Positions 18,252-51,329 of a stretch of DNA of 64,000 nucleotides are shown here, piece after piece. Numbering within the stretch: the first letter of the stretch is position 1; every line of letters begins with the position of its first letter. The DNA is taken from IMG/VR virus record IMGVR_UViG_3300044929_000080. The stretch is one strand, 5' to 3'. The DNA is from a virus. Lineage: Duplodnaviria > Heunggongvirae > Uroviricota > Caudoviricetes. The position numbers and the translations under genes were made by a program. The notes beneath the pieces are model-generated. The model saw only the letters and a list, made by a program, of their open reading frames with translations, was not told the origin of the DNA and made no database searches.

Positions 18252-18305
18252 ATGTGCAAGATCGTGAACCACTTTTCTGTTTATTATTACGGCCCGCTCA
18301 CCTAG
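18252..18305 (+). CDS. Putative tyrS leader peptide MCKIVNHFSVYYYGPLT
   Basis: 17-codon ORF with tandem TAT TAT TAC at 18282-90, about 100 nt upstream of tyrS; no SD, likely leaderless. Confidence 0.75.
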   Translation: MCKIVNHFSVYYYGPLT

Positions 18306-18362
18306 CGGACAGCCGTCGATCTCACATGCATCGATGTCACCGCTAATCGGGACATCGATTTT
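18294..18362 (+). promoter_or_regulatory. Attenuator: alternative 1:2, 2:3 and 3:4 hairpins
   Basis: CCGCT(18294-98)/AGCGG(18304-08); TAGCGG(18303-08)/CCGCTA(18340-45) with TCGAT(18316-20)/ATCGA(18330-34); ATCGATGTC(18330-38)/GACATCGAT(18351-59) followed by a short T run. Confidence 0.7.
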
Positions 18363-18409
18363 GCGGTCTGACTCCCAATTAGCGGCTTCCAAAATACCAA
18401 TTAGCTAAC

Positions 18410-19648
18410 ATGGGATTCAATGAAATGCTGACTGAACCAAACTTCACACCTACATTCGCTTCCCCATTCCTCCAGGACATGCAGGAGCGCGGAATGATCA
18501 ACCAATGTACTGACCTCGTCACTCTCGATAACAAACTTGTTGCTGGCCCAATTACGGCATACGTCGGATTTGACGCGACGGCCGCCAGCCTTCATGCTGG
18601 GCATCTACTCTCGCTGATCACTATGCGTCGCCTTGCTCGTCATGGCCATCGCGTCATTGCGCTACTTGGAGGCTCAACTACACTCATCGGAGATCCAAGC
18701 TTCAGGACAGAAAGCAGACCTCTTCTGACCGAAGCATCTGTTGCCGACAACATCGCAGGCATCCGAGGCAATATCGAAGCCGTTCTTGGTGAGCATGCTG
18801 CTAACCTGATGATTGTCGACAACAAGGATTGGCTTGGAGAAGTGGGCCTGATCTCGTTTATGCGAGAAGTTGGAGCGCACTTTACGCTTGCTCGCATGCT
18901 TACGATGGAATCTGTCAAACGCCGTCTGGACGATGGGCTGACCATGCTGGAATTCAGCTACATGATGCTGCAGTCCACCGACTTCTTGGAACTGGCCAGG
19001 CGTCACGATTGCGTCCTGCAGATGGGTGGATCGGATCAGTGGGGAAACATTGTAAACGGCATCGAACTAGCACGGCGTAGCGACGGCAAGGAATTGCTTG
19101 GTCTTACGACACCATTGCTCACGACAACCAACGGTCAGAAGATGGGCAAGACGGCTAATGGAGCCGTATGGCTTGCAGCCGAGAAGCTATCGCCGTTCGA
19201 TTTCTGGCAGTTTTGGCGTAATGTAGATGACGCTGATGTACGCAGGCTTTTGCTAATGCTGACCGACTTCACTTTGGCGGAAATCGAAGCTCTTTGCGAA
19301 GGCAATATCAACGCCGCCAAGGTGGCACTTGCCGAAGCAGTCACTGGACTTGTTCATGGTGCAGAAGAAGCGGAACGGTGCAACCAGCGCGCAGTACAAC
19401 TGTTCAACGGCGAACGACCCCAAGAAGTCACAATTGTTCAATCTCAAGATGGTGCCAAGGGTTTGGTGTCGATCATGGTTGAGCTTGGTTTTTGCAAAAC
19501 CAACAATGAAGCGCGGCGGTTGGTCGATGGAAATGCAGTAAAAATTGACGGTACGCTTGTGACAAATTGGAAAATAGAATTTAATTCCGGTCAGGAATTC
19601 CTAATCACAAGTGGAAAAAGAAACAGAAATTTCGTAAGAATTTCATAA
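18410..19648 (+). CDS. tyrS: Tyrosine--tRNA ligase
   Basis: 'YVGFDATAASLHAGH' (HIGH), 'QMGGSDQWGNI', 'KMGKT' (KMSKS), C-terminal S4-like domain. Confidence 0.97.
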   Translation: MGFNEMLTEPNFTPTFASPFLQDMQERGMINQCTDLVTLDNKLVAGPITAYVGFDATAASLHAGHLLSLITMRRLARHGHRVIALLGGSTTLIGDPSFRTESRPLLTEASVADNIAGIRGNIEAVLGEHAANLMIVDNKDWLGEVGLISFMREVGAHFTLARMLTMESVKRRLDDGLTMLEFSYMMLQSTDFLELARRHDCVLQMGGSDQWGNIVNGIELARRSDGKELLGLTTPLLTTTNGQKMGKTANGAVWLAAEKLSPFDFWQFWRNVDDADVRRLLLMLTDFTLAEIEALCEGNINAAKVALAEAVTGLVHGAEEAERCNQRAVQLFNGERPQEVTIVQSQDGAKGLVSIMVELGFCKTNNEARRLVDGNAVKIDGTLVTNWKIEFNSGQEFLITSGKRNRNFVRIS

Positions 19649-19730
19649 TTTCGATTAATTCATTAGTCACAAGCATATTGCTCTGGCAGCCTTATTAATG
19701 CCAGAGCAATATTTTTTATGGAGTGACCAA

Positions 19731-20423
19731 ATGACCAAAGTTGTTCCTATTATTGTCGCAAACAATATAGACGACGATTTGCTTTCCAAACACGGCGCGA
19801 TGAAACGCCTTACCGAAACTGTAGACCTTAAAAATCGACGTCTTTATGAGACAGCATTCCTTCTCTCTACAGTTAGTACAATTCCCACACTTCATAATGT
19901 TGTTACCAAGAAAAATATCATTGAATATAACCACATTTACGGATGTGAGGGGTTTGAGGTTTCAATGTTCGCGCTGCTTGCCGTGGCAAAAATAGCCAAT
20001 GACAAATATCCTGGCGCTCCGATTATGATGCTAAAGTCTACAATGCGGAGAGAAATGCAAGGCGATCATACACGAGATATTAAAGACAACGTCTCAAACG
20101 CATTACTGGGACACGTCATTACTTTTTCTTCAACAGACCATTTCATGATAGATGCCATGTTCACATATCAGGGACTCAATGATGTTTGTTCTTTGGTCTG
20201 GGGTGACCAAATAGATATCGAAAAGAACTGGAGAGAATACGCAACTGCTCGTGATCATTCACGAGGTAGAATAGCTAGGGGTCCAGCTTCAATTGGAAGT
20301 GTAGATGCTCACGAAATGCTTGAATTCAAACTGAGAACGAAAGAATTTATTTATACAGAGCAGAGTCCGCAACTCTACTCGCCATGGAAAACTTACGATA
20401 ACATAAGAGCTTTCAGCGCATGA
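19731..20423 (+). CDS. Hypothetical protein
   Basis: Start ATG 19731 with RBS ggag; 230 aa. Confidence 0.65.
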   Translation: MTKVVPIIVANNIDDDLLSKHGAMKRLTETVDLKNRRLYETAFLLSTVSTIPTLHNVVTKKNIIEYNHIYGCEGFEVSMFALLAVAKIANDKYPGAPIMMLKSTMRREMQGDHTRDIKDNVSNALLGHVITFSSTDHFMIDAMFTYQGLNDVCSLVWGDQIDIEKNWREYATARDHSRGRIARGPASIGSVDAHEMLEFKLRTKEFIYTEQSPQLYSPWKTYDNIRAFSA

Positions 20424-20445
20424 TCTTATAGCGCTGGACGTCATT

Positions 20446-21042
20446 CTAATGCAATGTGTATCCATCGATATGCAGACCTTCGATTTCGACTTCACCACCT
20501 TGTCGAACCAAGGCCTGTAGACTGCCACTATCTATCAATTTTAGAATATCTTTGATATCTACATCTTTCACTTTGACAACATCACCGTGTGCGTCCTGAT
20601 ATACGACATATGATTTGTCACTGAAATGCGTTGGAATGCCGCCTTCCATCGTTTTGGATATGATGATTACGGACCCATCCGACAATTGAGATAACCACAC
20701 ATGTTGCTCGCCATCTCGAAGGGCAATATGAAAGCCACGTTCGATAAAAGCCATATCAACATCTGTGTGCCAGTCTTCAACTTCATATAGCCGTAAATGC
20801 ATGACCGCCATTGCACGCACCATTCGTTCAAGCAAGTGATCATTACTATTAAATATTGAAACCATTTCTCTTCGATCTATGCCTGGGAGTTCGTCGCCTT
20901 CAACGAGTTCAACAAAATATTGATTCTGAGCGTCCCGTGTCGCTCGAATGTGTCTGTATGAGCCATCACCATCAGGAATAAATCGTGTAATAACGTTGTC
21001 GCCGCGATTCTCTACAGTTTTTTTAAGACCATCAATATTCAT
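20446..21042 (-). CDS. Hypothetical protein
   Basis: 198 aa ORF filling the region with no competing long ORF. Confidence 0.65.
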   Translation of the reverse strand: MNIDGLKKTVENRGDNVITRFIPDGDGSYRHIRATRDAQNQYFVELVEGDELPGIDRREMVSIFNSNDHLLERMVRAMAVMHLRLYEVEDWHTDVDMAFIERGFHIALRDGEQHVWLSQLSDGSVIIISKTMEGGIPTHFSDKSYVVYQDAHGDVVKVKDVDIKDILKLIDSGSLQALVRQGGEVEIEGLHIDGYTLH

Positions 21043-21092
21043 CTAATACCTCATGCGATACCATAATTTAACTTATTTAATTTCATTTTTGA

Positions 21093-21641
21093 ATGGCAAA
21101 ATATCACCTTCTTGAAAATAATGAATTGTTCAAAAAATATCCACGTGTGCCTTGCGGATTCATAGTTGAGACTTCATTTAAATATGGAGTTTATTCGATG
21201 TTTGAAGCAAATTTATCAGAGGTAAGGGAAGGCGATATTGTCGGGCTGACAATGTATAATTCTGTACATAATATAGGATTTGTAAACGAGGTATCCGGTG
21301 GAATTATTAAATTGCACACACTCCTCGGACAAACAAAAATGGCTTTCTCACAGGATTATAGGTGTGAGCCAGAAAATACAGAACAAAGGCCTCGGGCTTC
21401 TTTAAGTCCAGAGCGTTTAAACGGGCCATCTGCAAAAGGAATCTCGATTGGCTCCATTCCTGAATTGCCTGATCGGCTTATTACAGAGCTACGTTCTCTT
21501 GACTATTCGCTAAAGGGTAAGTCAGCTTTACAATGCAAAATTTTGGTAGCCAAAAAAGACGAGATTGTTCGTGAAACATTGAGCATCATGAGATCAGCTG
21601 CCTTGCAGCCTCAAATTGAGCTACCAGGCATGCGCCTCTAA
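21093..21641 (+). CDS. Hypothetical protein
   Basis: 182 aa ORF. Confidence 0.6.
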   Translation: MAKYHLLENNELFKKYPRVPCGFIVETSFKYGVYSMFEANLSEVREGDIVGLTMYNSVHNIGFVNEVSGGIIKLHTLLGQTKMAFSQDYRCEPENTEQRPRASLSPERLNGPSAKGISIGSIPELPDRLITELRSLDYSLKGKSALQCKILVAKKDEIVRETLSIMRSAALQPQIELPGMRL

Positions 21642-21699
21642 TCGGCCGTGTATTGTCGGAAAGAACGCTTCGACAATACAATCTTGTACAACCGATATG

Positions 21700-22917
21700 T
21701 CAAAGTTCCATCTTCGGGCCCGTTTCAGAATGGCGATAACCTTCGCGCGTTGGTCCCCATGATGTGCCTTTGACAACAATTCCTGTTGCCCTTTCAACTT
21801 CACAGGATAACTGATCCGCAGACACACAGTTTGACAAACTATCATTTTCGTAAAATACGGGGTTCGAGAGGAGTTGATCCATGCAGGTGATCACAATTCC
21901 AGCATCGATTTCGATCTGACCCTCAACGCGGGAAATGTCGTGGGCAATTGCCTTCTTTAATACCCCAAGATCCAAGGGTGCAGCACGGATAGTCCCCTGC
22001 CAGTCATTGTGAACGTTGGTTGGATCGACGATTTCAACATAGCTCATATCGTCTCCGGCATGGGCCATTGGCCCTGCACCATGGCGAGTTGTGTAAGACC
22101 GCGTCATGTAATGGACATCGATACCGTCGAGTCCAGCCTCGTTCGCAATTGTTGCCATATTCAGGAGTCCGGTGTTTGAACGGGTGACGTGAGGAAATAC
22201 GCCGTAGTCCTGATCAAGCAGCAGGCCTTGAGCTCCTTCGAAAAGAATGTGGCCCATCAGGCGGCTATCATCACGCAGACCAACGATATTTTTAAAATCA
22301 TCGCAATCATGGACGAAACGCTCAAGGATGCCGTCATTATTGATAATAGATAACTGATGATCTGACAGGGCATCAGCCCCAAGTGCGGACATACGAAGAG
22401 AAACCCATTCAGAACGAATATTCGCCAGCGTGTCCTTGATGTTTTTATCGCCAAAAAGATCGCCCACAGTAATGCGGAGGTTATCCCTGAGACTTCTCTC
22501 GATAGCTTCACCAAATCCAACCCCGCAACTGCCATGACGTTCACCAGCGCGCTGTTGCTCAATGAACTGGTTGATCATCATATCATAAGGGGTCGTAATG
22601 ATGCTGCGTGGGTCAACAGTAATGACTGTGTTTGCCCCCAGTTGACGCAAAGCCTCGAATTCTTCCAACAGCAGCATCGGATGCGAGACAAAAAACTGCG
22701 ACATGTGCGAAGAAACACCTGCAAATGCTCCAGAACCGAAATGATGAAAGACATGACGTTTGCCATCGGGTGTCGTTACTGTATGGCCAGCCTGTGCGCC
22801 ACCATTAGAACGGACAACGATATCTGCACCCTTGTGGGCCAGGATATCAGTCATAAGACCTTTGCCTTCATCTCCGTAAGCTGAACCGATGACCGCACTT
22901 GCCATTCTCTTCGTCAT
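21700..22917 (-). CDS. Adenylosuccinate synthetase (PurA)-like GTP-dependent ligase, divergent
   Basis: 'GDEGKG', 'NGGAQAGHT', 'FEGAQGLLLD', 'YTTRHGAGP'; start ATG 22917 after aaaggaaa; aspartate-binding loop not conserved. Confidence 0.85.
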   Translation of the reverse strand: MTKRMASAVIGSAYGDEGKGLMTDILAHKGADIVVRSNGGAQAGHTVTTPDGKRHVFHHFGSGAFAGVSSHMSQFFVSHPMLLLEEFEALRQLGANTVITVDPRSIITTPYDMMINQFIEQQRAGERHGSCGVGFGEAIERSLRDNLRITVGDLFGDKNIKDTLANIRSEWVSLRMSALGADALSDHQLSIINNDGILERFVHDCDDFKNIVGLRDDSRLMGHILFEGAQGLLLDQDYGVFPHVTRSNTGLLNMATIANEAGLDGIDVHYMTRSYTTRHGAGPMAHAGDDMSYVEIVDPTNVHNDWQGTIRAAPLDLGVLKKAIAHDISRVEGQIEIDAGIVITCMDQLLSNPVFYENDSLSNCVSADQLSCEVERATGIVVKGTSWGPTREGYRHSETGPKMEL

Positions 22918-22954
22918 GCCATTTTCCTTTCCGCCGTTATGGAGCATCCCGCCA

Positions 22955-23863
22955 TCAGGCGAGACGCCGTACTCCAGTTGGAGCGCCACGTTCGACAAGG
23001 CTCTGGATTGCACTTGCTACAACCAGCGAGGTACCATCTGTCCAGCTACCAGCAACATCAGCCTTCTTCGCGCCTTCCGTCACCTGGATAGCTGAGACAA
23101 TAGTTTCCGCGAGCTTGGTGTGGTCATCGAGAATAATCACACGTTGCGGCAGAAGTGCTTGCCATTGAAAAATTGAATTGGTGCCGTAAGATCGCCGTCG
23201 CTCATTAATTACGACATGGAATACTTCATATTTGGCGCTAGCCATGCGAATGCATTCTTCCGTCGACAAAGTCGGAGTTTGGAGGCCAAGAAATTTAGAA
23301 GCTTGTGCGGACGTCACTTCTTCAAGAACGGGTTCGTCACCAACAGTGAAGAGGTACCCCTTCTTGCGACGTTTTTCCCATGCGTCGGATACAGTCTTTT
23401 CGGCAGCAAACAAATGAGCAAGATTATAACTCTCGCCATCATTCGGGCCACCACCCCTTTCCAGATAGATTTCTTTCAACTGTTTCGCGATCCGAATATC
23501 GGCTTCGAATTGGGTTGCCTGAAGCGGAGAATGATCATATTCGCAATCGCCAATTGCGAGCGCCATCAAATGTGGATCTGTTACGGGTTTGCGAGCATAA
23601 ATTTCCGTCGCCAACGTATTTAATCCGTCACGAATTAAATTGTCAGCAATAATTCCCATTGATCCAGTGACATCTACACCAACGATAATTGGCGTAGAAT
23701 TCGGATTGTCTGCAGAATCCCGCGATTCACGAACATTGATAAGCCTAGGATCGAACTCGTCCTTCATGGCACTCGAAGTGAACACCGTTGCCGACGACTT
23801 TCCTGCTACATGCGCTGTAGAATAGCTATCCCAAGCGCCAGAATCCCATCTTCCAGTACCCAT
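22955..23863 (-). CDS. vWA-domain protein (paralogue 2)
   Basis: MIDAS-like 'VDVTGSMG', 'GGGPNDGESY', 'LFTVGDE'. Confidence 0.8.
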   Translation of the reverse strand: MGTGRWDSGAWDSYSTAHVAGKSSATVFTSSAMKDEFDPRLINVRESRDSADNPNSTPIIVGVDVTGSMGIIADNLIRDGLNTLATEIYARKPVTDPHLMALAIGDCEYDHSPLQATQFEADIRIAKQLKEIYLERGGGPNDGESYNLAHLFAAEKTVSDAWEKRRKKGYLFTVGDEPVLEEVTSAQASKFLGLQTPTLSTEECIRMASAKYEVFHVVINERRRSYGTNSIFQWQALLPQRVIILDDHTKLAETIVSAIQVTEGAKKADVAGSWTDGTSLVVASAIQSLVERGAPTGVRRLA

Positions 23864-23875
23864 TTTATTCTCCTT

Positions 23876-24796
23876 TTAAGATGCGAGACGGACAACGCCG
23901 CCCTGTTTAATGTTTGATGGAAGGTTTTCGATAGCATTGGCGACTGTCATTGCAGTAGAACCGCTCCACGAATTTGCAACCGTGGCCTTATTGGCACCTT
24001 CGATGACCTGGATCGTCGATACAACGACTTCAGCGAGCTTGGTGTAATCATCGAGAAGGATCACACGTTGGCCAATAATTTTCTGCCAGCGGTCGAGAAC
24101 AGTCGGCAAATTATAACGCGCATCACCTTCGTTCTTTAAAACGATGTGAAAGACTTCATAAGTCTTCATGGCCATATCGACACAATCTTGTGCTGACATG
24201 TTACCCTGCGGGCTAATACCGAAAACCTTTTCGACTTCCGCAGCAGTCAAGCCATCATGAATGGGTTCATCACCAATAGTGAAGAGATAGCCCTTCTTGC
24301 GACGTTTTTCCCAGGAGTCAGATACAGTCTTAGCTGCCGCGAAATAGTGAGCAAGAGAATAAGATTCTCCACCGTTTCCGCCGCCGCCAGATTCAATCCA
24401 AAGTTCACGAACCTGATCTGCGAGAGAAATATCAGCTTCAAACTGTGTAGCCTGGGCTGGGGCGCTATCTGTCTTGGCATCACCGATAGCCATAACCATG
24501 ATATGAGGATCGCTCACTGGCTTGCGGTCATAAATTTCCTTGGCCAGCGTGTTCAATCCGGTCTGCATAAGATTATGCGAAATCATGCCCATAGAGGCAG
24601 TGACATCGGCAGCGAGAATAATTGGCGTTGAGTTCGGATTATCAGCAGAATCCCGCGATTCACGGACAAGAATTTCGCGCGGATTATAGGCAGATTTCAT
24701 ATTGCGAGATGTAAAGACCTGCCCTGCCGACTTTCCGCTTACGTTTGCAGAGGCATAGTTGTCCCACGCATTACTACTCCAACGACCATTTCCCAT
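23876..24796 (-). CDS. vWA-domain protein (paralogue 1)
   Basis: 'ADVTASMG', 'GGGGNGGESY', 'LFTIGDE'; colinear with 22955-23863. Confidence 0.8.
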   Translation of the reverse strand: MGNGRWSSNAWDNYASANVSGKSAGQVFTSRNMKSAYNPREILVRESRDSADNPNSTPIILAADVTASMGMISHNLMQTGLNTLAKEIYDRKPVSDPHIMVMAIGDAKTDSAPAQATQFEADISLADQVRELWIESGGGGNGGESYSLAHYFAAAKTVSDSWEKRRKKGYLFTIGDEPIHDGLTAAEVEKVFGISPQGNMSAQDCVDMAMKTYEVFHIVLKNEGDARYNLPTVLDRWQKIIGQRVILLDDYTKLAEVVVSTIQVIEGANKATVANSWSGSTAMTVANAIENLPSNIKQGGVVRLAS

Positions 24797-24811
24797 AGTT
24801 TTACTCCTTCA

Positions 24812-25855
24812 TCATGCGCCGTAAACATCGGCAGGGGTTACATTCATCTCCACGAATTTTCTTTTGCCGTAGCTTTTATCCAGGCACGCGGACCAACCTG
24901 CATAATCTTTGAACGCTCCATCAGCGGGGGGAAGCAAAAGCCATTCACGCATTGCGACGGGAACGTCCGCATTCATGTGAAGGCCTCCACCGCCTGGACA
25001 GCCGAGGAGATCTTGTGCCGTGGCACGAATGAGTTGAAGATCAACTTTCTCGTCGACTGGTGTTCCAGAAACTACCATTTTTGGCAGGATCGAAGTAGTC
25101 CGCTCCGGCAATGCCAAGGGACGCTTCCCAAATTCAGTTGCAAATCCCCAACCGCCAACAAGCATAATTGAATGCCACTTTGGAGAGACAAGAATATTCG
25201 ATGGCGAAACAGCACCATGACAAATTCCAGCCCATTTGAGATAGCAAGCCATATTCATGAGACTGGAAACGATCCATGCAACGTGAACTGCTGGAAGCTG
25301 CCCGTTGTAGTGATTAATGAGATCAGCCAACAGCAGGTATTCAACGGGACGCTCGATTACGGACACAATGCCATTATGGCCAAGATCCCAATATTCTCTC
25401 TGTTTTGGCAAGAACCGCTTGATTTCTTTTTCCATAGCAGCGTCAGCAAACTTGAAATTTTGAAGCCGATTGCGCTCCGCTCCAGCGATATCGTCGAAAC
25501 CATCAGGAATCTCATAGGCGAGTGAGGATTTCCCGATATAAACATCGCCGAGGTCAGCAGTACGATTGACGAGATATTTGAAATTGAAACCGCCACTCAG
25601 ACCAGGCCCTGACTTCATGAAGGCCTTCGACATCAGAAGTTCAGCTCTAGGTTTTACAGCACCAAGCTTGCCCAACGCCGCGTTTTTAAGTTCTGTCAAA
25701 TGACCAAAAACATCACGCGCCTGATCCGACGAATTGTGGTCAGGATGCCAGTCCATAATGAGTTTGCGATACAAACGCTTCACAGACTTTTCATCCCCGG
25801 AAAACAGGGTTGAGGCATCAATCTTTTTCAGTGCGAGGATGTCTTGAGCATTCAT
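24812..25855 (-). CDS. J-domain fused to a kinase-like (probably inactive) domain
   Basis: 'YRKLIMDWHPD' (J-domain HPD); catalytic-loop-like 'HGAVSPSNIL' and 'GGW' in place of HRD and DFG. Confidence 0.7.
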   Translation of the reverse strand: MNAQDILALKKIDASTLFSGDEKSVKRLYRKLIMDWHPDHNSSDQARDVFGHLTELKNAALGKLGAVKPRAELLMSKAFMKSGPGLSGGFNFKYLVNRTADLGDVYIGKSSLAYEIPDGFDDIAGAERNRLQNFKFADAAMEKEIKRFLPKQREYWDLGHNGIVSVIERPVEYLLLADLINHYNGQLPAVHVAWIVSSLMNMACYLKWAGICHGAVSPSNILVSPKWHSIMLVGGWGFATEFGKRPLALPERTTSILPKMVVSGTPVDEKVDLQLIRATAQDLLGCPGGGGLHMNADVPVAMREWLLLPPADGAFKDYAGWSACLDKSYGKRKFVEMNVTPADVYGA

Positions 25856-25894
25856 AGGTTGAATTCCTTTCTAAACCCAAGCTACTCCCACTTT

Positions 25895-25928
25895 TTGTAA
25901 TTTGCAAGTTGCAATTTGCACTTTACAA
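25895..25928. promoter_or_regulatory. Operator-like imperfect palindrome between divergent genes
   Basis: TTGTAA-tt-TGCAA-g-TTGCAA-t-TTGCA-ct-TTACAA; 14 of 17 positions symmetric. Confidence 0.6.
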
Positions 25929-25985
25929 CTTTCTTATCGAGTTTTCTTGTGATAGTGTAGATTTCAAGATCAGACAGGAAACCAG

Positions 25986-26663
25986 ATGACGAAAGATAAC
26001 ATCTATTATGAGCGCCCAATTCTTACAGTAGACATTGTTCTCCTCACTATGGACGAACATGGGCTTAACGTTGCCGTTCTCGAACGCGAAAATGATCCTT
26101 TCAAAGGTCAAAAGGCATTGATCGGCGGCTATGTTCATGTCGACGAAGATCAGGATGATCGTGAGGCAGTGAAGCGGGTTTTGCTAAGAAAGACAGGTCT
26201 TTCTGATATCTATTTTGAGCAACTGAAGACTGTTGCAAATGCTACGCGTGATCCACGCGGATGGTCGTCATCGATTGCTTTTATCGCGCTTGCACCGATT
26301 GATTTAGTAAGAAGCGCCTCTAAAACCTACCCGATCAGCATTCATCCGGTAGACGAAATCAAAGGACTTGCCTTCGATCACGACGAAATTATGGACTTCG
26401 CCATCCAACGGCTGCGTGGAAAAGGGGCATATTCCACCCTGCCCGCACAGCTTCTGGGAGAGAAATTCACCCTGCCAAAACTTCATGAGGTTTATAGCAA
26501 GGTGATGGATGTAAATCTCGATATGAGTTCATTCCGCCGCAAAATTGCAGAACTCGACCTTATTGAAGAAACATCTGAATTTGAAGAGCCGCAGCCGCGA
26601 CGCAGGCCTGGGAAACTCTACCGCCTGAAACACGGTGTAACAACATTCGACCGCACAATCTGA
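25986..26663 (+). CDS. nrtR: NrtR-family Nudix/wHTH transcriptional regulator
   Basis: 'LTVDIVLL', 'LIGGYV', 'RDPRGWS', C-terminal wHTH 'FTLPKLHEVY...SSFRRKI...GKLYR'; Nudix box lacks catalytic Glu ('RVLLRKTG'). Confidence 0.85.
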   Translation: MTKDNIYYERPILTVDIVLLTMDEHGLNVAVLERENDPFKGQKALIGGYVHVDEDQDDREAVKRVLLRKTGLSDIYFEQLKTVANATRDPRGWSSSIAFIALAPIDLVRSASKTYPISIHPVDEIKGLAFDHDEIMDFAIQRLRGKGAYSTLPAQLLGEKFTLPKLHEVYSKVMDVNLDMSSFRRKIAELDLIEETSEFEEPQPRRRPGKLYRLKHGVTTFDRTI

Positions 26664-26717
26664 TACAAGGTTCGTTTAAAATGAAATTCTTCATTTAAAT
26701 AATGCACTTATAAAAAA

Positions 26718-26839
26718 TTGACACTTTAATTCGGAGGCGACCCCATAGAAGCCTCGACGCCATAAGCAATTTGGCTTTTATTTAAACAATAATTATTGCG
26801 CAAATACGGTTGACAATAATCGATAAAAGGTCTCCCATA
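26718..26839 (+). promoter_or_regulatory. Two tandem promoter-like elements TTGACA-N17-YCCCATA
   Basis: TTGACA 26718 with CCCCATA 26741; TTGACA 26810 with TCCCATA 26833. Confidence 0.5.
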
Positions 26840-26884
26840 ATTTATGAATTATTACGAATTTAATTTCGACAGGAATAAAGATAA

Positions 26885-28003
26885 ATGAATAAGCCGAGCG
26901 AGAAAAAGCCGATTATTCCGGAAATAAATATTCCGGATGCCGCTGACTATCAGCCATCGAGTTCAGCTTTCATCAAATTCGCAGCGAGAGCCTATGTCTT
27001 GATTAGAACCAAGCCTCGGATTATGGCTGGGTCTTTAGCTGTCCTTGGTTTAACCGTTGCAGGCGTTGCAATTTCGAATAATGGAAAAGTGACGACACTT
27101 CCGCCGATTGAAGCAAATACGATTGATGTTACTGATAATATTGCACCTCAAGTGGCTATGTCTGGTCAACATATTGATAATACTATCGAAAATATCGACA
27201 CTGACGAACTGCGAACGTCCATAAAGCCACTCGATTTACCAGATGAACAAAATTCATTTGCGGACAAAAATCTGCCGATAATTGATGAACAAAATGCATC
27301 AGAATTGAATGATAAAGCTCCTGAAACGAGTAAAAGTCTGGTAAACAAGAACGAGGATACAGAAACTGTTCCTGACACCAGGAATGACGCACCTGACGTT
27401 GCTTTAGATAAAAATGCAGAAAGCAATGAAGTAACCCCGATGGTTTTTTCTGAACGTTTTGGCCAGACAATTTCTCCAATGACGGAAGCCGAAGCACAAC
27501 AGGTCCTGAAGGATGGTTTGTCAAAAATTGGATCTCTTGAACAATCGATAGATAACCTTAAATCGTTCCCGTTCGATCTCGTTGTCAAACCAGAAGCTGT
27601 TGAACCAAAACATGTAGTACTTAAAATTGCTGAAGGCGCTGAAGCAACAAGTGGGTTCTGGCGAGAAATCGAAGACCCTGTTACTGCTGCCGATAAAGGC
27701 AAAAAGAAGCCTGTGAATAAGAGGGAAGAGCATTTCCTTGTTCTAAATGCCGTAGATGAAGAAACAGGTAAGCCTGTAGCTGTGGATGTAAAGGACATGG
27801 ACAGCGGAGAGTCCAAGAAGGAAACTTCGTGGGCGGTCCTTATTCCTGAGAAACAATTCATGGATTTTGCTCAAAACAAGAAAGATGACGGCACTTTTGC
27901 CAAGCCTGTTCTCGGGAAGCTCGATATTGAAACAGGCGAAATTAGTTGGGAAATCGATACTGATGGGCGAGCGCTCATCAACTGGAAGGAATTTGCAGAA
28001 TGA
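26885..28003 (+). CDS. Membrane-anchored protein, DUF6384-like C-terminal domain
   Basis: One TM segment near the N-terminus, acidic linker, 'SGFWR...FLVLNAVD...SWAVLIPE...KKDDG'. Confidence 0.6.
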   Translation: MNKPSEKKPIIPEINIPDAADYQPSSSAFIKFAARAYVLIRTKPRIMAGSLAVLGLTVAGVAISNNGKVTTLPPIEANTIDVTDNIAPQVAMSGQHIDNTIENIDTDELRTSIKPLDLPDEQNSFADKNLPIIDEQNASELNDKAPETSKSLVNKNEDTETVPDTRNDAPDVALDKNAESNEVTPMVFSERFGQTISPMTEAEAQQVLKDGLSKIGSLEQSIDNLKSFPFDLVVKPEAVEPKHVVLKIAEGAEATSGFWREIEDPVTAADKGKKKPVNKREEHFLVLNAVDEETGKPVAVDVKDMDSGESKKETSWAVLIPEKQFMDFAQNKKDDGTFAKPVLGKLDIETGEISWEIDTDGRALINWKEFAE

Positions 28004-30325: not shown

Positions 30326-30509
30326 ACATAATCCTTCAGCACCTGGGACTAACTAATACCATTCCTTCGCAACGTCAATTTCAAACATCTGGATAGCGGT
30401 TTAAAATAGCAAAAAAATCAGAAGAAAAAACGTCCGAATGAAAGAATCTTTATTGTGCAGATCGTTTATTTAGATCACCATTGTCAACAAGATATAGTGG
30501 AGTTTATTT

Positions 30510-39169: not shown

Positions 39170-39421
39170 ATTTTATCCCTGTTCTACAAACAGAGCCTAA
39201 GCTCCTGACAAATTCCCATATAAACCTATCAGAAATAAAATCAACCTGTAATTTTTCAATTTCCTGCTTCCCTCATTATTAAAAGACAACATGTTGCGTT
39301 TGCAACGAGAGAGAAAATAGTTTGAGTTAACTTGGATTAGCGCGGTTTATCTTTCCAAAATTTATGCAACAATGAATTTGCGATTAAATAATATCATCGT
39401 TCATTAAATTGAGGCGGATGT

Positions 39422-40321: not shown

Positions 40322-40391
40322 AAAAATGATTACCTCTGCAAATTTGGAAATTTATTCATTGCGGCATCGTGAATATTATTCGACCATTTAA

Positions 40392-42020
<1,629 letters not shown>

Positions 42021-42133
42021 CCATTTAATCTTTTTCTGAAAATAGGCATCCTGCTTAATGTGTCGATTTATTGAATAAATTTTTCGATCTTAAAAATATT
42101 TTGCTGGATATTTATTTTTTAAAATGCTAGTAA

Positions 42134-44317
<2,184 letters not shown>

Positions 44318-44364
44318 GCACGTCAACTCCTCTCGTGATCAGTTATGTAAGATAAAGGTGTTTT

Positions 44365-45069
44365 ATGGCTACCGATATTAAGATCATCATCGCAACCCTG
44401 AACAAGATTGATCAGCAATGCGCTGAACTGCTAGCGCCCGACACTAGTCAAAAATTAACAAGAGAAGTGCTGAGCAATCTCGTCCTCGCAAACGGCGTCA
44501 CCCTTCGCAAAATTGTCGACGAAATTATTTTCGGACAACGCCAAATCGATATCAACGATTTTCCTGAAGCACACGCCGCGTTTGATAAAATTTACAGGAT
44601 CGGCGCTGAAGCAAAGAAACAAATCACCTCGGTTCCTGCTTCAAAGAAGGCAGAGCTTGAGAAAATGTTGTCGGCTATCACAAAAGCCGTGACAATCATT
44701 GATAAGGAAGCCGATATCATCCACACAAGTTTGATTCAGCTCTCAACACAATCAGCTGAATTGAGTGCCGAGGATTCAGATAATCCCAATCTGAAAAAGA
44801 ATCTGGCCGCCACATCAGCAGACGAACGACTTGTCCCAGTATGGGATGATAATGAAGACAAGCTTCTTTCAATGGCATGCTGTTCCAATCAGGAATGGGG
44901 CCTTCTTTATAAAGTCAATCAGACCAAGCACGTTGCGTTCTTTGCTCATGCCGCCACCGAGGCACTCATCTTGGAATGGTGCGCAGCCAAGAAGAGAGAA
45001 GTCCGCGAACAAGCCTTTGTTTTTGAGGCCATCGCCATCATAAATCCAATGGGAACAAGAACATGGTAA
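44365..45069 (+). CDS. Hypothetical protein
   Basis: 234 aa helical ORF. Confidence 0.6.
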   Translation: MATDIKIIIATLNKIDQQCAELLAPDTSQKLTREVLSNLVLANGVTLRKIVDEIIFGQRQIDINDFPEAHAAFDKIYRIGAEAKKQITSVPASKKAELEKMLSAITKAVTIIDKEADIIHTSLIQLSTQSAELSAEDSDNPNLKKNLAATSADERLVPVWDDNEDKLLSMACCSNQEWGLLYKVNQTKHVAFFAHAATEALILEWCAAKKREVREQAFVFEAIAIINPMGTRTW

Positions 45070-45243
45070 TCCGATGGAATACCTCATCGGTTTAAAACCC
45101 AAGGCGCAATTACTCCTTCTGGAGTAGCCCGATTTTCACCTTCCTACCACCCGTTTGCGCATTTGTTTTTTGAACTGGCGCATGGTCTATAAACCTCATC
45201 AACGAACGCGGAACAAACCGCAGCGAAAACAGGAGAAGCTCAA

Positions 45244-45726
45244 ATGAACAACGTTAATTACACCCACGTTTCCAATAGCAATCCTTCATTCTTTCACGGA
45301 TGGCCATTCATCACCTTTTTCGAAAATCGTGCGGACGATGCACTTCCATTCCAGACTTTTGCAGATTTCGATGGCCCTACCGTTCTATTTAACCCGAATT
45401 ACGTCACCAAAAATGATCTGGAAAAGCCGTTCGCCGCAATGATCTGGGTTCCTCTGGTTCTACAGAGCTTTGCAACCAGCGTCCTTACTGAAGCTATGGA
45501 TTCAGAAGATGACATCGGTGCGTTGACCGCTCCACGATGGCAGCAGTTCAGAGATGCATTTTGCCATTATGCCAAGACGGATTGGGTAGACATCGTAGAA
45601 CGCACTGAAGAATTCGGCATTGACTATATGGCGGAATACGCTGTCGAAGCACTGTTCATCGAGAGTGGTATTCATGAAATGACTATTGCGAAGAAAGCAA
45701 ACACTTTTACGCTCCGCGTGGCATAA
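45244..45726 (+). CDS. Hypothetical protein
   Basis: 160 aa with RBS aggaga. Confidence 0.7.
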   Translation: MNNVNYTHVSNSNPSFFHGWPFITFFENRADDALPFQTFADFDGPTVLFNPNYVTKNDLEKPFAAMIWVPLVLQSFATSVLTEAMDSEDDIGALTAPRWQQFRDAFCHYAKTDWVDIVERTEEFGIDYMAEYAVEALFIESGIHEMTIAKKANTFTLRVA

Positions 45727-45796
45727 AAGTAGTTCACTACATATTGCAATCGGGGTCAAATGAGATAAAACCATCTTATTATAAGCTGTAATTAAG

Positions 45797-46681
45797 ATGG
45801 TCAGGCCCCGCATGCACCCCTTCAAAAGAAGACCCATGAAAACAATACCCTATGGTAACTTGCCAAGGGGACAGTTTGTGGAGTTAAACGGAGTCATACG
45901 TTGGGACGGAGAACTGTTTTGGTCTTCCTCCCATGGCAAAGCATCCGCGCTTTGGATAGCTGGTTACATGGTGGAGGCGTATAATGTACTTCTCCCCAAT
46001 AAAGAACGAGTTGCAGAAGTTATTCCTGCTGATTTGTTCGGCCAACTCTGGCGAATTAAAAATGAAGACGGAAGTTACAGCGTCGGAAAACTTAAAGTAT
46101 ACGGATCAGAAATTTCATTCCAGCCTACGGATCAAAAGATAACTTACAGGTCATGGCAAAATGCCGGACTTCCTGAAACAATTCTTTCTTCATCACGCCT
46201 TAAAGAAGCGGCGAGCAATAGTGCTTTCGCCGATCATCTTTATGGTGCCTTATGCAATGTCGGCTGGCACAACACAAAAAAACACACGGCTGAAATTCTC
46301 GCATCGTGGTCAATGGCAGCTGAAGTTGTAGCGCAGCTAAGAGATAAAAACGAAACCGTCTTCGACTTGATATTCAGTGGCAGTGAAGAAGTGGTTTTTG
46401 ATGACATTTTAGATGCAATGAAGGCGGAAGGACTGGAACCAATTTTTCCACCCGCACCATCCAAAAAGCCTAGAGAGCAAGCTTTGGAATTGCTTGATGA
46501 AGTGGAAAAAGAATATCCGGAAAAAACACCCTTCTGGTATACTTTTTACATATCGAGATACACGACAGATAACACTCCAGAGGGAAGAGTTCATAAAGCC
46601 GCCTTTGCAGGCCGGATGACAATTGATGAATGGTGGAAATTCTGGGAATTGTGGAACTCCGAAACCTATTCAGAAGAATAG
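45797..46681 (+). CDS. Hypothetical protein (phage-type 'LY.ALCN...SW..A..VA.LR' segment)
   Basis: 294 aa; alternative start ATG 45836. Confidence 0.6.
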   Translation: MVRPRMHPFKRRPMKTIPYGNLPRGQFVELNGVIRWDGELFWSSSHGKASALWIAGYMVEAYNVLLPNKERVAEVIPADLFGQLWRIKNEDGSYSVGKLKVYGSEISFQPTDQKITYRSWQNAGLPETILSSSRLKEAASNSAFADHLYGALCNVGWHNTKKHTAEILASWSMAAEVVAQLRDKNETVFDLIFSGSEEVVFDDILDAMKAEGLEPIFPPAPSKKPREQALELLDEVEKEYPEKTPFWYTFYISRYTTDNTPEGRVHKAAFAGRMTIDEWWKFWELWNSETYSEE

Positions 46682-46742
46682 TGATTGAACCCTTCGCATC
46701 ATTGATCATAAAATTGGTCTTTATTACAGAAGGCCAATAGCA

Positions 46743-47387
46743 ATGAGCAATCAAATTGACTTAAATATTTTCGTTACGTCGTTATCTGGGGCCAGGCGCG
46801 CAAAGAGGAAGTGTGACGCAGTCCTTACGATTGAAGATCCACTATACAAACACGGCCTACGCTTTCACAAAAAGCCGCATCCTGATCACTTGGTTCTTAT
46901 GTTCGAGGATGTTGATTTTTATCAAGGTAATATCGCAATGCCAGACATCAAACATGTCGAAGCCGCGATTGATTTTGCCCGAGAACATGTTGACCATAGA
47001 CTTCTAGTTCATTGCAAGGCTGGGATTGCGCGTTCAACTGCAATGGCGTTAGCGATTATTGCTGACAGACTTGGAAAAGGAAATGAACCGGAGGCGGTAA
47101 AATATCTCCTTCAAATTCGCAATGAGGCAGCCCCAAATCTGTTTTTACTGGATATGGTTGACGATTACCTTGATCGTGAAGGTCGATTAAGAAATGCTTG
47201 GTTGTCAGTTGAAAATGCACATGAGCATTATGCCAATCATCGAAAACTAAAACGTGAGATACTGGAGAAGAACCCAGCTCTTTACAGAGAACCATTCAGC
47301 TGCCTGTCCTACAGTGCGTGGCGATATCGTCCAACCACACTCATAAGAGAAGCGGTTATTGAATCGAATGTTGTCCCTGCCCTTTGA
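46743..47387 (+). CDS. Protein-tyrosine/dual-specificity phosphatase family
   Basis: CX5R loop 'VHCKAGIARS', acid loop 'LMFEDV', 'PN' motif. Confidence 0.88.
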   Translation: MSNQIDLNIFVTSLSGARRAKRKCDAVLTIEDPLYKHGLRFHKKPHPDHLVLMFEDVDFYQGNIAMPDIKHVEAAIDFAREHVDHRLLVHCKAGIARSTAMALAIIADRLGKGNEPEAVKYLLQIRNEAAPNLFLLDMVDDYLDREGRLRNAWLSVENAHEHYANHRKLKREILEKNPALYREPFSCLSYSAWRYRPTTLIREAVIESNVVPAL

Positions 47388-47451
47388 GTTCCTGTGCTCT
47401 TGAGGGTTGCATCTTCAATGAAGGATACGGAAAATACTGAGATTATCCGTA

Positions 47452-48984
47452 TCAGAACCTTGGACCAGGTAAAGACTCGCCAAGCTGGACGTAGTCGTTT
47501 TCCAGATCAGAAGCATGCCGTCCTCGAATACGGGTTGCTAATCGATCCCTATTAATCACCGCTTTTTTCGTTTCATCATCGGGAGATTTCGATAAAGCAT
47601 AGAGATGGCCAGCCTCCTCATCAAACACGCTTTTTAGGTCGTCTGGAACATTATAGCCTTCAAAAAGGGCTAAACGGGCGCTGGCATTGTCATTGACTGA
47701 GAATTCACTTACCAGTTGCTGTATCTCATAACGATACCGATCTTCGACTGCCTGTCGTTGATCCGCATCCAATCCCGAAAAACTGACACCGATGTTCTTT
47801 GCTACAAGGGCGGCTGACTTCATTTCACGTTCAGTCGCAACATCACGACCGTCTTCGGCTCCAAATCTGCTAGCGGGTAATGCAACTTTTTTAGCAATTT
47901 TGGTTGCGATGGCGATAATTTCACGCATCGATGCATCATGCGGAACGTCTGCTGCGAAAGCCGCACGCAGAGCTTTGTGAGTAGCTTGCCCAAGAACACC
48001 TTCCTTGAGAGTACCAGGAGTTGTATGGAAGCGACTTTGCCCATAATGAAGGGAGGCTTCTTTAAGGTCTGCAATTTCTGCAACAACCGTACTGCGACCC
48101 CCGTCTCTTAAAAAAAGAATGGCTGCTGTCGCATCTGCAAAACAAGACGCTATGTGACGCGCACGAGGAGAGCTTTCAACATCCGCCTGCAATCCTTCGG
48201 CAGCCCCAAGACAATTGTGAGCCAGCCCAAGGGCAATCGTTCGGGCAGCGCAAAATTTGCGAGTTTCATCGAGATCCATACTTACTAAAGGAAACGCTCG
48301 ACTACCCATCGAAGACAATTCCCGCGCATAAGCGGAAGGACCAACAAACGGAGAATATGGCAAAATGAAATTCAAGGAGATTTCCTTATTGCCAGTAATG
48401 TTTTCTGTCATGCGACTGCAGTGAGGTTTAAAGCCAGCGCGCAACAGAACAGTTAGATCATTCAAGCTCCTGATCGATCCTTCCACATCAGCTGGCAAAG
48501 TGCTATCTCGTAGAGACGCCGTTTCCCAATTGGATCGAGCAACGGCCTGAACGTCAATGACATTCAAAGCAACACCCCGGCGCATGGCTTCATCTGAAAA
48601 AACATCCAGAGCCCAATTCAAATGACTGTCTTCGCTCACGGGAGCGCGCTCGATGGAAACACCAGCGCCTGGAGAAACAACTGCTGATTTAGAGCGCGCC
48701 AATAATTTTGCAAGCATACGGGCAGTAATGTCAGAACGTCTTCCCATCATGATAATGCGATGAGAACCTTCCATAATCACATCCAGGACACTATTCTTAA
48801 GACGCATCTCAGCATTGCCAAAGTCATCAAAGTGAAGTCGACCAACGACATCGCCACCTATATTGGGCTTTATATCGCCCTTAAAAGTGACATCCAGTAC
48901 AGTGCCATCGCGACGAACAACGACATATTGATCGTCACCGCGTTTGGCACGAACGGTTCCAACAATGACTTCACCTTCTTTCAT
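47452..48984 (-). CDS. Hypothetical protein
   Basis: 510 aa ORF. Confidence 0.7.
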   Translation of the reverse strand: MKEGEVIVGTVRAKRGDDQYVVVRRDGTVLDVTFKGDIKPNIGGDVVGRLHFDDFGNAEMRLKNSVLDVIMEGSHRIIMMGRRSDITARMLAKLLARSKSAVVSPGAGVSIERAPVSEDSHLNWALDVFSDEAMRRGVALNVIDVQAVARSNWETASLRDSTLPADVEGSIRSLNDLTVLLRAGFKPHCSRMTENITGNKEISLNFILPYSPFVGPSAYARELSSMGSRAFPLVSMDLDETRKFCAARTIALGLAHNCLGAAEGLQADVESSPRARHIASCFADATAAILFLRDGGRSTVVAEIADLKEASLHYGQSRFHTTPGTLKEGVLGQATHKALRAAFAADVPHDASMREIIAIATKIAKKVALPASRFGAEDGRDVATEREMKSAALVAKNIGVSFSGLDADQRQAVEDRYRYEIQQLVSEFSVNDNASARLALFEGYNVPDDLKSVFDEEAGHLYALSKSPDDETKKAVINRDRLATRIRGRHASDLENDYVQLGESLPGPRF

Positions 48985-48986
48985 AT

Positions 48987-49310
48987 TTACGCTCCAAAAT
49001 TCATACCAACTGAACGTGGGAGAGCGTCAACCTGATACTCATCAGACTGAATTTCACCGTTCACAAACTCTCTCAACATAAAAGGTCCGGCCGAATAAGA
49101 ATATTCATAATCATCAGCCGTCATTCCTTCTGGAATGATATATTTTGCGCCATCAGAACTTGTCAGAAAGAAGCCTTCATCATCAAAACCAACGTTATCA
49201 AATTTCGTGCCGCGCATCTGTTCAGGCAAATCAATTATACAAACAGTTGCGTCTTTGCTCATAACCACAAGCGCCGCGTCCAGCACGTTTTCAGAGGTAT
49301 CAATACTCAT
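48987..49310 (-). CDS. Hypothetical acidic protein
   Basis: Start ATG 49310 with RBS ggag; 107 aa. Confidence 0.65.
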   Translation of the reverse strand: MSIDTSENVLDAALVVMSKDATVCIIDLPEQMRGTKFDNVGFDDEGFFLTSSDGAKYIIPEGMTADDYEYSYSAGPFMLREFVNGEIQSDEYQVDALPRSVGMNFGA

Positions 49311-49466
49311 CTTATTCTCCAGAAATCTACAGAGTGATCTTCTCACCAGACCCAGCAAGCAACCACAAACATTTTTCGTTTTTGTGAATGAGATTTCAGA
49401 TAAAGATGCAGATAAATAAATATTCAGATAGCTAAGGAGCGTTTAAATGATTGGCTCGCGACGGAA

Positions 49467-49524
49467 ATTTTCACTGAAACCCGCTATTTCACCGCACAGT
49501 GAAAAAGGTCGTTTCAGTGAAAAT
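49467..49524. repeat. 58-nt nested inverted repeat downstream of argS
   Basis: ATTTTCACTGAAAC-ccgcta-TTTCAC-cgcaca-GTGAAA-aaggtc-GTTTCAGTGAAAAT. Confidence 0.85.
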
Positions 49525-49546
49525 AGATGCAATTTTAGAGTTTTTC

Positions 49547-51235
49547 CTACATCCGGCCTGGAACTTCAATACCTAGCAGATAAAGACATTTGGTCAGTAT
49601 CGCGTCTACGAACTGACAGATCGCCATACGTGAAGCATTGACTTTGCCATTTTGAACGACCTGGCATTCGGCATAGAAACGACTAAACGCCTGTGCGACA
49701 GAAAAGGCAAATTCTGCAATCTCTTTTGGTTGATACCGATTAACTGCCAACTGGACCGCAATTGGAAACCCACTGCATGCGAGAAGTAATTGACGTTCAG
49801 CTTCGTGATCAATCTTGATCTCTCCAATTTTCCCATCAAATGGAAAATCAAACGCCTTTAACACGACACTGCGAATACGAGCACACGCATACTGAAGATA
49901 TGGCCCCGTCTTTCCTTCAGGCGCAGTCATCCGCTCAGGGTCGAAGACATAACCAGAGATACGATCCGTCGACAGATCGGCGAACTTCAGGGCACCAATT
50001 GCAATCTTCTCCGCGATCTCATGATTGCCATCACCAACACGTACTTTAGCCTGCTCAACAGTTGAAGCGATGAGATCGGTTAACTTTGCAACGCCACCAT
50101 CACGGGTCTTAAACGGCTTCCCATCCTTTCCATTGACGGTTCCAAAGGCGACATGCACCAGTTCTGCACCCTTGTCGAAACCTGCCTTCCGGGCGACTTC
50201 AAAAACAGAATGCAGATGCTGCTCCTGCCGCTGGTCGACGACATACAGGATTTTAGTAGCGCCGATGGCTTGCGTCCGGTTCATCAAAGTAGCCAGATCA
50301 GTTGCGCCGTAAAGAGCTGCACCATCGGATTTCTGGACAATAAGCGGTGGAAGTCCGTCAGCAACATCAACAACCAGCGCGCCATCACTCTTACGAAGAA
50401 GACCCTGGGTGTCTAAATCCTCCAGCATTTCAGGCAAAGCATCATTCACGTCAGATTCGCCAAGCATTAAATCGAAATGAGCGTGGAGCTTATTGATATC
50501 GCCAGAGATTGAAGCCAGCGACACCTGACGCATTTCTTGCCAAACTGAATGCAGATATGGATCGCCAGCCTGAAGATTTTGCGTCAGTTTCCGAGCATGA
50601 CCAAGAACTGTCTCGTTTTCTTTGGCATCCTTGCTCGCAACGCGATACATTTCTTCCAGAGTGAATACATCAAAGTCAGGGATGACCTCGTTTACCCATT
50701 CATCATGATAATCAGCACTCATCTGGTGAAGAAGCATCCCCATTTGAAGGCCCCAGTCGCCCCAGTGAATATCTGACACGACGTTATAACCCACGAAATT
50801 CAGTAACCGACGCAGACTTTCACCGATCACAAATGACCGCAAGTGACCGACATGCAGTGGTTTTGCGACATTTGGACCACCAAAGTCGATGACAACTGTC
50901 TGATCTGGTGTGACCTTTTCAATACCGAGGTCAACAGATGAAAGCATGCTTAGAACCTGAGATTCAACAAAGCTTGGTGACAATTTCAAATTGATGAAGC
51001 CAGGTCCTCCAATAGATACGTCAGCAAAAACAGAATTCGTCTTAATATCAGCAATGATAAGTTCAGCAAGATCGCGTGGCTTCATTCCAATTGAGGGTGC
51101 AACCGACATGACATCATTGCATTGATAGTCATACCCAGGGGTGCGGTTTGGTTTAAGAACAGTATTAATTTCAACGGATGCAATTTTAAGAAAAGCCGCC
51201 TCGATTGGAGCGGCCACACTCTGCAATAAAGTCAT
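49547..51235 (-). CDS. argS: Arginine--tRNA ligase
   Basis: 'GPGFIN', 'DFGGPNVAKPLHVGHLRS' (HIGH), 'KPFKTRDG', DALR-like 'GPYLQYACARIRS'. Confidence 0.96.
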   Translation of the reverse strand: MTLLQSVAAPIEAAFLKIASVEINTVLKPNRTPGYDYQCNDVMSVAPSIGMKPRDLAELIIADIKTNSVFADVSIGGPGFINLKLSPSFVESQVLSMLSSVDLGIEKVTPDQTVVIDFGGPNVAKPLHVGHLRSFVIGESLRRLLNFVGYNVVSDIHWGDWGLQMGMLLHQMSADYHDEWVNEVIPDFDVFTLEEMYRVASKDAKENETVLGHARKLTQNLQAGDPYLHSVWQEMRQVSLASISGDINKLHAHFDLMLGESDVNDALPEMLEDLDTQGLLRKSDGALVVDVADGLPPLIVQKSDGAALYGATDLATLMNRTQAIGATKILYVVDQRQEQHLHSVFEVARKAGFDKGAELVHVAFGTVNGKDGKPFKTRDGGVAKLTDLIASTVEQAKVRVGDGNHEIAEKIAIGALKFADLSTDRISGYVFDPERMTAPEGKTGPYLQYACARIRSVVLKAFDFPFDGKIGEIKIDHEAERQLLLACSGFPIAVQLAVNRYQPKEIAEFAFSVAQAFSRFYAECQVVQNGKVNASRMAICQFVDAILTKCLYLLGIEVPGRM

Positions 51236-51281
51236 AATTTTTCCTTTAAAAGTAGGATGCGCATAAGGGGTGAGGTGAAAA

Positions 51282-51329
51282 TTATCGTCGTCTTCGCTTT
51301 AATCCATTAATATATAAAATATTACACAT
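51282..51329 (-). CDS. Putative argS leader peptide MCNILYINGLKRRRR
   Basis: SD GAGGG then ATG ATG (51332/51329); ends AAG CGA AGA CGA CGA TAA, 46 nt before the argS ATG. Confidence 0.7.
   Translation of the reverse strand: MCNILYINGLKRRRR

Follow-up and report, generated by a model that had tools for sequence, protein, structure and literature searches.

The stretch of DNA analysed here, referred to as the window, comprises 64,000 nucleotides of the IMG/VR virus record IMGVR_UViG_3300044929_000080 and has a G+C content of ~45%. It encodes a tyrosyl-tRNA synthetase (TyrRS, gene tyrS) and an arginyl-tRNA synthetase (ArgRS, gene argS), and each gene is preceded by a short open reading frame (ORF) with a run of codons for the cognate amino acid. 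We refer to these ORFs as the Tyr leader and the Arg leader. A preliminary description of this DNA had listed tyrS and argS as its only aminoacyl-tRNA synthetase genes, which is borne out within the window, and had placed upstream of each an ORF of 15-17 amino acids with three tyrosines (YYY) or four arginines (RRRR). The coordinates of both ORFs were confirmed. The genes and their leaders are as follows.

18252-18305, plus strand: Tyr leader, 17 codons and a stop codon (18303-18305), with TAT TAT TAC at 18282-18290.
18410-19648, plus strand: tyrS, encoding a TyrRS of an accessory clade (NCBIfam TIGR00234, 324 bits), with the motifs HAGH and KMGKT.
51329-51282, minus strand: Arg leader, 15 codons and TAA (51284-51282), with CGA AGA CGA CGA at 51296-51285.
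51235-49547, minus strand: argS, encoding an ArgRS of an accessory clade (NCBIfam TIGR00456, 414 bits), with the motif HVGH.

The class I motifs are intact in both synthetases. The tyrS gene probably begins at 18425 (407 amino acids); this ATG is common to all tyrS relatives, whereas the ATG at 18410 is not conserved (one relative, L002, has ACG there). The Arg leader has a second in-frame ATG at 51332 and a Shine-Dalgarno (SD) sequence, GAGGG, at 51339-51335.

Runs of this kind are rare in the window. Among 1221 ATG-started ORFs of 8-40 amino acids on both strands, YYY occurs once, directly before tyrS, and RRRR occurs at two loci only, one of which is the argS leader. When the 200 nucleotides upstream of the genes were shuffled, an ORF with YYY appeared in 33 of 20000 sequences and an ORF with RRRR in 3 of 20000.

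The Tyr leader is present in eight lineages (the window, L001, L002, L004, L085 from Agrobacterium rubi, L087 from Rhizobium leguminosarum, L088 and L101), in which TyrRS identity falls to 48%. The peptide core YYYG(P/S)L is conserved in L001, L002, L004, L085, L087 and L088, and L101 has a YY variant. Relatives with 82-97% TyrRS identity are encoded on syntenic contigs of ~160-260 kb, a relative with 62% identity is on a contig of 19 kb, and all of them have the leader. On syntenic contigs with a TyrRS of 62-90% identity the flanking helices accompany the leader, and the RNA downstream of the leader ORF is more conserved than the promoter spacer. In a clade with ~57% TyrRS identity (A. rubi, R. 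leguminosarum and metagenome contigs), a peptide of the form M(C/S)K...YYYG(P/S)L is encoded at -159 from tyrS, with a GC hairpin and then a U-run after it. The most distant case, at L101:1306-1455, precedes a second TyrRS copy (48% identity) of the Rhizobiaceae genome G281. Its YY leader, MIKTALIAANYYATSP, has the same architecture as in the window, with a terminator formed by GCCGCC/GGCGGC and followed by TTTGTTTTGTT. This genome also encodes a housekeeping TyrRS and a split accessory argS.

Ordinary synthetases with 37-52% identity, among the matches listed, were used as negative controls only. At ordinary tyrS loci of Alphaproteobacteria (41-52% identity, among the matches listed), no comparable leader precedes the gene in 78 of 80 cases. 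Related leaders occur at the chromosomal tyrS of two Caulobacterales loci, L052:3209-3402 and L057:3795-4003 (Brevundimonas, Caulobacteraceae). These encode peptides ending in ...LYYRPLK and ...TYYRSR ~150-166 nucleotides before tyrS. Their promoter layout is of the leaderless kind, and the same CCGC...GCGG hairpin spans the stop codon. Thus, the Tyr leader family is older than the element represented by the window, and is not confined to accessory copies. The DNA pattern of the leader core was found in none of 401 sampled Rhizobiales genomes, and a family-wide TyrRS search at an E value of 1e-120, which may have been too strict, gave no matches.

The Arg leader is present in nine lineages (the window, L191, L090, L091, L093, L192, L094 from A. 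rubi, L098 and L099), in which ArgRS identity falls to ~46-50%. Relatives at 86, 79, 73, 53 and 51% ArgRS identity are all syntenic, with a divergently oriented RlaP-like gene next to argS. A. rubi and two other Rhizobiaceae genomes encode an ArgRS that is ~49-50% identical, and these too have the leader. In all relatives of this ArgRS clade, a short ORF ends in 3-5 Arg codons and a stop codon 44-52 nucleotides upstream of argS. The N-terminal parts of these peptides are unrelated among lineages and only the C-terminal Arg run is shared, which suggests that the signal is the decoding of the codons, and hence tRNA supply, rather than the peptide. CGA accounts for 21 of the 41 leader Arg codons, compared with 13% CGA in the genes of the window. 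Neither RRRR nor a C-terminal Arg run was found at any of 78 distant argS loci (among the matches listed), and no C-terminal Arg run was found at 29 Pseudomonadota argS loci.

The short cognate ORFs of tyrS and argS are thus real and not chance frames. The preliminary description had considered two such matches hard to explain by chance, and both the shuffles and the conservation in relatives exclude that explanation: the leaders recur upstream of related genes, and shuffled DNA rarely gives them. A further likeness it had pointed out, that both peptides start with MC, is a coincidence, as the leaders of relatives begin with MS, MI, MM, ML, MY, MK, ME or MA. We also considered that the short ORFs might be fortuitous frames after all, or lie in a conserved RNA that acts without being translated, for example a leader that binds a protein or a small molecule. 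The 5' half of the tyrS leader is indeed conserved more in nucleotides than in peptide, as such an RNA would be. Against this stand the cognate codon runs, the most conserved coding feature in both of these otherwise drifting peptides, the retention of frame and stop position in every lineage, the very low chance rates and the lack of any Rfam family match. We regard an explanation of this type as very improbable.

A promoter was predicted immediately upstream of the Tyr leader, and three helices were predicted from the end of the leader onwards.

18217-18245, plus strand: predicted tyrS leader promoter, TTGACA and TATCTT with a spacer of 17 nucleotides (10 of 12 matches in a consensus scan), ending 6 nucleotides before the leader ATG.
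18289-18316, plus strand: predicted helix 1:2 (protector), in which the last Tyr codon and GGCCCGCT pair with AGCGG and GCCGT around the stop codon (-13.6 kcal/mol).
18303-18345, plus strand: predicted helix 2:3 (antiterminator), in which TAGCGG and CGTCGAT pair with ATCGATG and CCGCTA, taking up the whole 5' arm of the terminator.
18330-18363, plus strand: predicted helix 3:4 (terminator hairpin), 12 pairs followed by TTTG (-15.9 kcal/mol).

In seven lineages the -35 hexamer lies 29-30 nucleotides from the leader ATG despite a variable spacer sequence, and the layout in L101 is alike. No SD sequence precedes the ATG. Given the fixed spacing and the lack of an SD sequence, we infer a leaderless transcript, and the Tyr leader is probably translated from an mRNA of this type.

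All three helices are predicted in every lineage. Across seven sequences, 97% of cells in helix 1:2 are paired, and offsetting the two strands by 1-3 columns lowers this to 14-64%; for helix 2:3 the values are 94% and 15-59%. Pairing in helix 3:4 was not counted because the alignment misplaces its 3' arm; the terminator hairpin itself is predicted in all lineages, at -15 to -20 kcal/mol. With the footprint of a ribosome set on the Tyr codons, helix 2:3 is predicted in seven of seven lineages at -13 to -18 kcal/mol, and L101 has an analogous antiterminator helix at -18 kcal/mol. Minimum free energy folds of the full-length leader always keep the terminator. The antiterminator is predicted only when folding is restricted to the RNA made before segment 4, as expected of a kinetic switch. 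The U-tract after the hairpin has 6-7 U in L085 and L087.

The predicted architecture of the tyrS leader is that of a complete transcription attenuator of the trp type. In the proposed mechanism, transcription would start at or next to the leader AUG to give the leaderless mRNA. With ample charged tRNA-Tyr, the ribosome would reach the stop codon and cover segment 2, so that the 3:4 terminator forms and transcription ends before tyrS. When charged tRNA-Tyr is scarce, the ribosome would wait on the three Tyr codons and melt helix 1:2; segment 2, once freed, would pair with segment 3 as the antiterminator, allowing RNA polymerase to read into tyrS.

Several observations weigh against this scheme. 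The U-tract is only 3-4 U long in the window group and is poor in L088, and a simple terminator scan did not call the hairpin of the window. The helices are kept mainly by invariant sequence: there are two compensatory pairs in helix 2:3 and none in helix 1:2. Finally, assembled contigs from RNA libraries, which do not mark the starts or ends of transcripts, bridge the leader and tyrS and begin upstream of the predicted promoter. These contigs cover 17819-19837 (the 3' end of a bPH gene, the leader and tyrS) and have a word depth 3-7 times that of their neighbours in three ant metatranscriptome libraries, a figure that may include carried-over DNA and is not an expression level.

The region between the Arg leader and argS is organized differently.

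51236-51281, minus strand: spacer between the Arg leader and the argS ATG, 46 nucleotides with 13 C and 4 G; the argS SD sequence, AAGGA, is at 51246-51242.

No terminator was found in this interval (51281-51236) of the window, and a hairpin with a U-tract before argS is absent from eight of the nine lineages. In seven lineages, the stretch of RNA between the start codons of the leader and of argS is predicted to form a single long hairpin, more stable than the folds of shuffled sequences (z -1.6 to -4.2). In it, the first leader codons are paired with the SD region, and the Arg codons and stop codon lie at the apex. The probability of SD-to-leader pairing is 0.53-0.85 in eight of the nine lineages, compared with 0.15-0.41 when the order of the leader codons is shuffled, and the paired leader and SD sequences vary between lineages. 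The SD-to-leader pairing above controls and the lack of a terminator favour translational attenuation for argS, and the folds suggest that stalling in the leader unmasks the ribosome-binding site. A ribosome held on the Arg codons, mostly CGA and directly before the stop codon, would keep the leader-SD hairpin open so that argS is translated. With plentiful charged tRNA-Arg, it would leave fast and the ribosome-binding site of argS would close again.

The copy in the window fits this scheme poorly. Its argS RNA has no significant fold (z +0.10) and its SD-to-leader pairing probability is 0.00; the fold in L191 is also weak (z -1.24), and a search of the minus strand for a promoter of the Arg leader gave nothing convincing. 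Separately, we tried CCTT and TTTTC in the argS spacer of the window as anti-SD sequences and rejected them, as their pairing is too weak to be predicted.

Part of this evidence could also be accommodated by a Rho-dependent mechanism of the tna or mgtA type. Fast translation of the leader would leave the C-rich spacer naked, Rho would load there and transcription would stop early in argS; a ribosome stalled on the Arg codons would cover the start of the site and block Rho. The spacer has more C than G in nine of nine lineages, and the C-rich, G-poor bias is strongest in the window. The stall site of tnaC abuts its stop codon, and so does the Arg run here. In addition, the window copy, which does not have the SD-sequestering helix, needs some other mechanism. 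However, a spacer of 44-52 nucleotides is short for a Rho loading site, an excess of C over G is also expected from a strand complementary to purine-rich leader codons, and the structured hairpins of most lineages would hinder Rho loading. We hold Rho-dependent control to be rather unlikely, yet a serious rival at least for the window.

Overall, we consider it likely that the two leaders are independent ribosome-stalling sensors, each of which would make an accessory synthetase depend on how much of its own charged tRNA is available. In this model, we infer where the transcript starts, that ribosomes stall, which way regulation runs and what the physiological trigger is. The preliminary description had treated the two genes as a paired system, a reading that did not hold: the leaders appear to use different mechanisms, have no sequence in common, and each moves with its own gene clade. 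The accessory ArgRS is encoded in three genomes of Rhizobiaceae species, all of which lack the 57% TyrRS clade. Some association is nevertheless seen. In four further lineages the longest contigs encoding the TyrRS and ArgRS types have the same size (228354, 638285, 1367232, which is A. rubi, and 127369), and in three lineages both genes occur in the same samples. The most fitting description is of two independent sensors, each tied to its own gene, with a tendency to be carried together.

The accessory synthetase types are second copies in Rhizobiaceae genomes. The accessory ArgRS has only 29-35% identity to its chromosomal counterparts in Sinorhizobium, Mesorhizobium and Xanthobacter. Of 401 Rhizobiaceae genomes, three (G051, G281 and G284) have the accessory gene, always beside a housekeeping argS, and in one of them it is broken. 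The TyrRS type is a second copy beside the housekeeping gene in G281. The earlier proposal that both are backup synthetases, switched on when charged tRNA runs short, thus stands in part: they are second copies in Rhizobiaceae relatives, and the sensing logic is what the predicted leader structures point to. Codon use over the genes of the window is ordinary (Arg 5.7%, Tyr 2.6%), so a special codon demand of the element, which had been suggested as one trigger, receives no support.

The window encodes many orphan proteins, an RND efflux pump and the defence genes JetABC. Housekeeping genes of the second-copy type are also present, including those for thymidine kinase, a PurA-like protein, CTP synthase, NAD-dependent DNA ligase (LigA), FtsH and SSB. 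A search of plasmid and phage collections with the window gave no match, and a close relative was not found among the viral contigs searched. The PHROGs search with ten of the orphan proteins was nil except for one weak terminase-like match. The element is from ant-associated bacteria, and many ant metagenome runs contain DNA identical to the window.

In an alternative, the replicon would be the small chromosome of a symbiont with a reduced genome, its tyrS and argS would be sole copies, and the leaders would tune housekeeping synthetases. The lack of a match in plasmid or phage collections would fit, as would CTP synthase, the DNA ligase, FtsH, SSB, thymidine kinase and the related Tyr leaders before chromosomal tyrS in the two Caulobacterales loci. 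However, relatives are found on contigs of ~160-420 kb rich in orphan and defence genes (Wadjet, AbiEii), no tRNA gene was found within the 64 kb, and the ArgRS is of the type that is a rare second copy in Rhizobiaceae, unlike the housekeeping ArgRS of Alphaproteobacteria. In our view a small chromosome is improbable.

Several known systems resemble the sensors proposed here. In Streptomyces coelicolor, trpRS1 reportedly encodes an auxiliary, indolmycin-resistant TrpRS under ribosome-mediated transcription attenuation. This is the closest match, as a second-copy synthetase lies behind a leader with tandem cognate codons and a terminator/antiterminator pair, and is made only when charged tRNA falls. 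It differs in phylum and amino acid; here one accessory element encodes two synthetases, translation of the Tyr leader is probably leaderless, and the argS leader has no terminator. The attenuation of TrpRS1 was published earlier (Vecchione and Sello, J Bacteriol 2010, cited as reference 57 in PMC4787780).

Like E. coli pheM-pheST, the tyrS leader combines a short ORF containing a run of cognate codons with 1:2, 2:3 and 3:4 helices that exclude one another, all before a synthetase gene. E. coli pheST is a housekeeping gene, and its leader has an SD sequence. The Tyr leader has none, its U-tract in the window is short, and no sequence or Rfam similarity to this leader was found. This class of attenuators, which includes trpL, hisL and pheL, is discussed elsewhere (PMC1183508, PMC2965389). 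Leaderless transcripts that begin at the AUG of a short cognate ORF upstream of a synthetase gene, as suggested here for tyrS, occur in Deinococcus deserti, for example before cysS, where the starts were mapped experimentally (PMC4007540). The start in the window is instead deduced from conserved promoter spacing, and the lineage differs. A His leader has been described before hisS paralogs (PMC2965389).

The argS leader is more similar to the translational attenuators of ermC, cat and cmlA, in which a ribosome stalled in the leader opens a helix that hides the downstream SD sequence. In those genes stalling depends on a specific nascent peptide together with an antibiotic. By contrast, the argS leader peptide is not conserved beyond its Arg run, and the helix is not predicted in the window copy. 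T-box riboswitches of Gram-positive synthetase genes likewise raise expression in response to uncharged cognate tRNA. They do so by direct binding of the tRNA, independently of translation. Rfam 15 covariance models, T-box included, gave no match over the whole window at gathering thresholds, and around the leaders a cutoff as lax as E 10 gave either no match or chance matches to snoRNAs and introns.

Neither of the two leader types, Tyr before tyrS and Arg before argS, was found described in the literature searched, whose coverage is incomplete. The preliminary description had called the system undescribed. This goes too far, as there are published precedents in the attenuated auxiliary TrpRS1 of Streptomyces, the leaderless cognate leaders before synthetase genes of D. 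deserti (PMC4007540) and the His leader before hisS paralogs (PMC2965389). The control principle is known, and the argS leader is perhaps a new variant of it.

The findings add two uncatalogued leader families, Tyr/tyrS and Arg-run/argS, to the short list of synthetase genes under cognate leader peptides. If the proposed sensors operate as predicted, the rule seen in Streptomyces TrpRS1, in which an auxiliary synthetase is silent until its tRNA is uncharged, would extend to Alphaproteobacteria and to a mobile or accessory replicon. The argS leader is the more interesting case, as the supply of charged tRNA-Arg would seemingly be read via slow CGA codons right before the stop codon and act on translation, not termination. 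In practice, such leaders could flag accessory synthetases for the enzymology of resistance to inhibitors or analogues, and could be put to use in Rhizobiales genetics as compact sensors of a single amino acid.

The element and the matching Agrobacterium/Rhizobium islands may, speculatively, carry these genes as inducible "translation insurance". TyrRS and ArgRS would then be insensitive to an inhibitor or analogue, and the leaders would be triggered by an outside agent that depletes charged tRNA-Tyr or tRNA-Arg. Such agents may include natural products that target synthetases, and anticodon nucleases like colicin D (tRNA-Arg) and colicin E5 (tRNA-Tyr). We consider this idea doubtful at present; if true, the genes would serve resistance or counter-defence rather than respond to starvation.

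Other features were observed near argS. The divergent gene beside it (51513-52538, plus strand) encodes an RlaP-like nucleotidyltransferase (PF10127, a family of the RNA repair pathway), and its position is kept in all element lineages (L090, L091, L093, L191 and L192). Within the first 40 coding nucleotides of argS, where an Ala-rich N-terminus is encoded, there is a terminator-like hairpin followed by TTTTCTT (51215-51194, minus strand). It is retained in L191, L090 and L091 and absent from the Rhizobiaceae copies. This hairpin might couple translation to read-through, or might be a by-product of the Ala codons.

Elsewhere in the window, genes for JetA, a DUF4194 (JetB-like) protein and JetC are present at 6701-12372; JetD was not among the ORFs scanned. 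A small ADP-ribosyltransferase (PF03496) is encoded at the start of the window (9-665).

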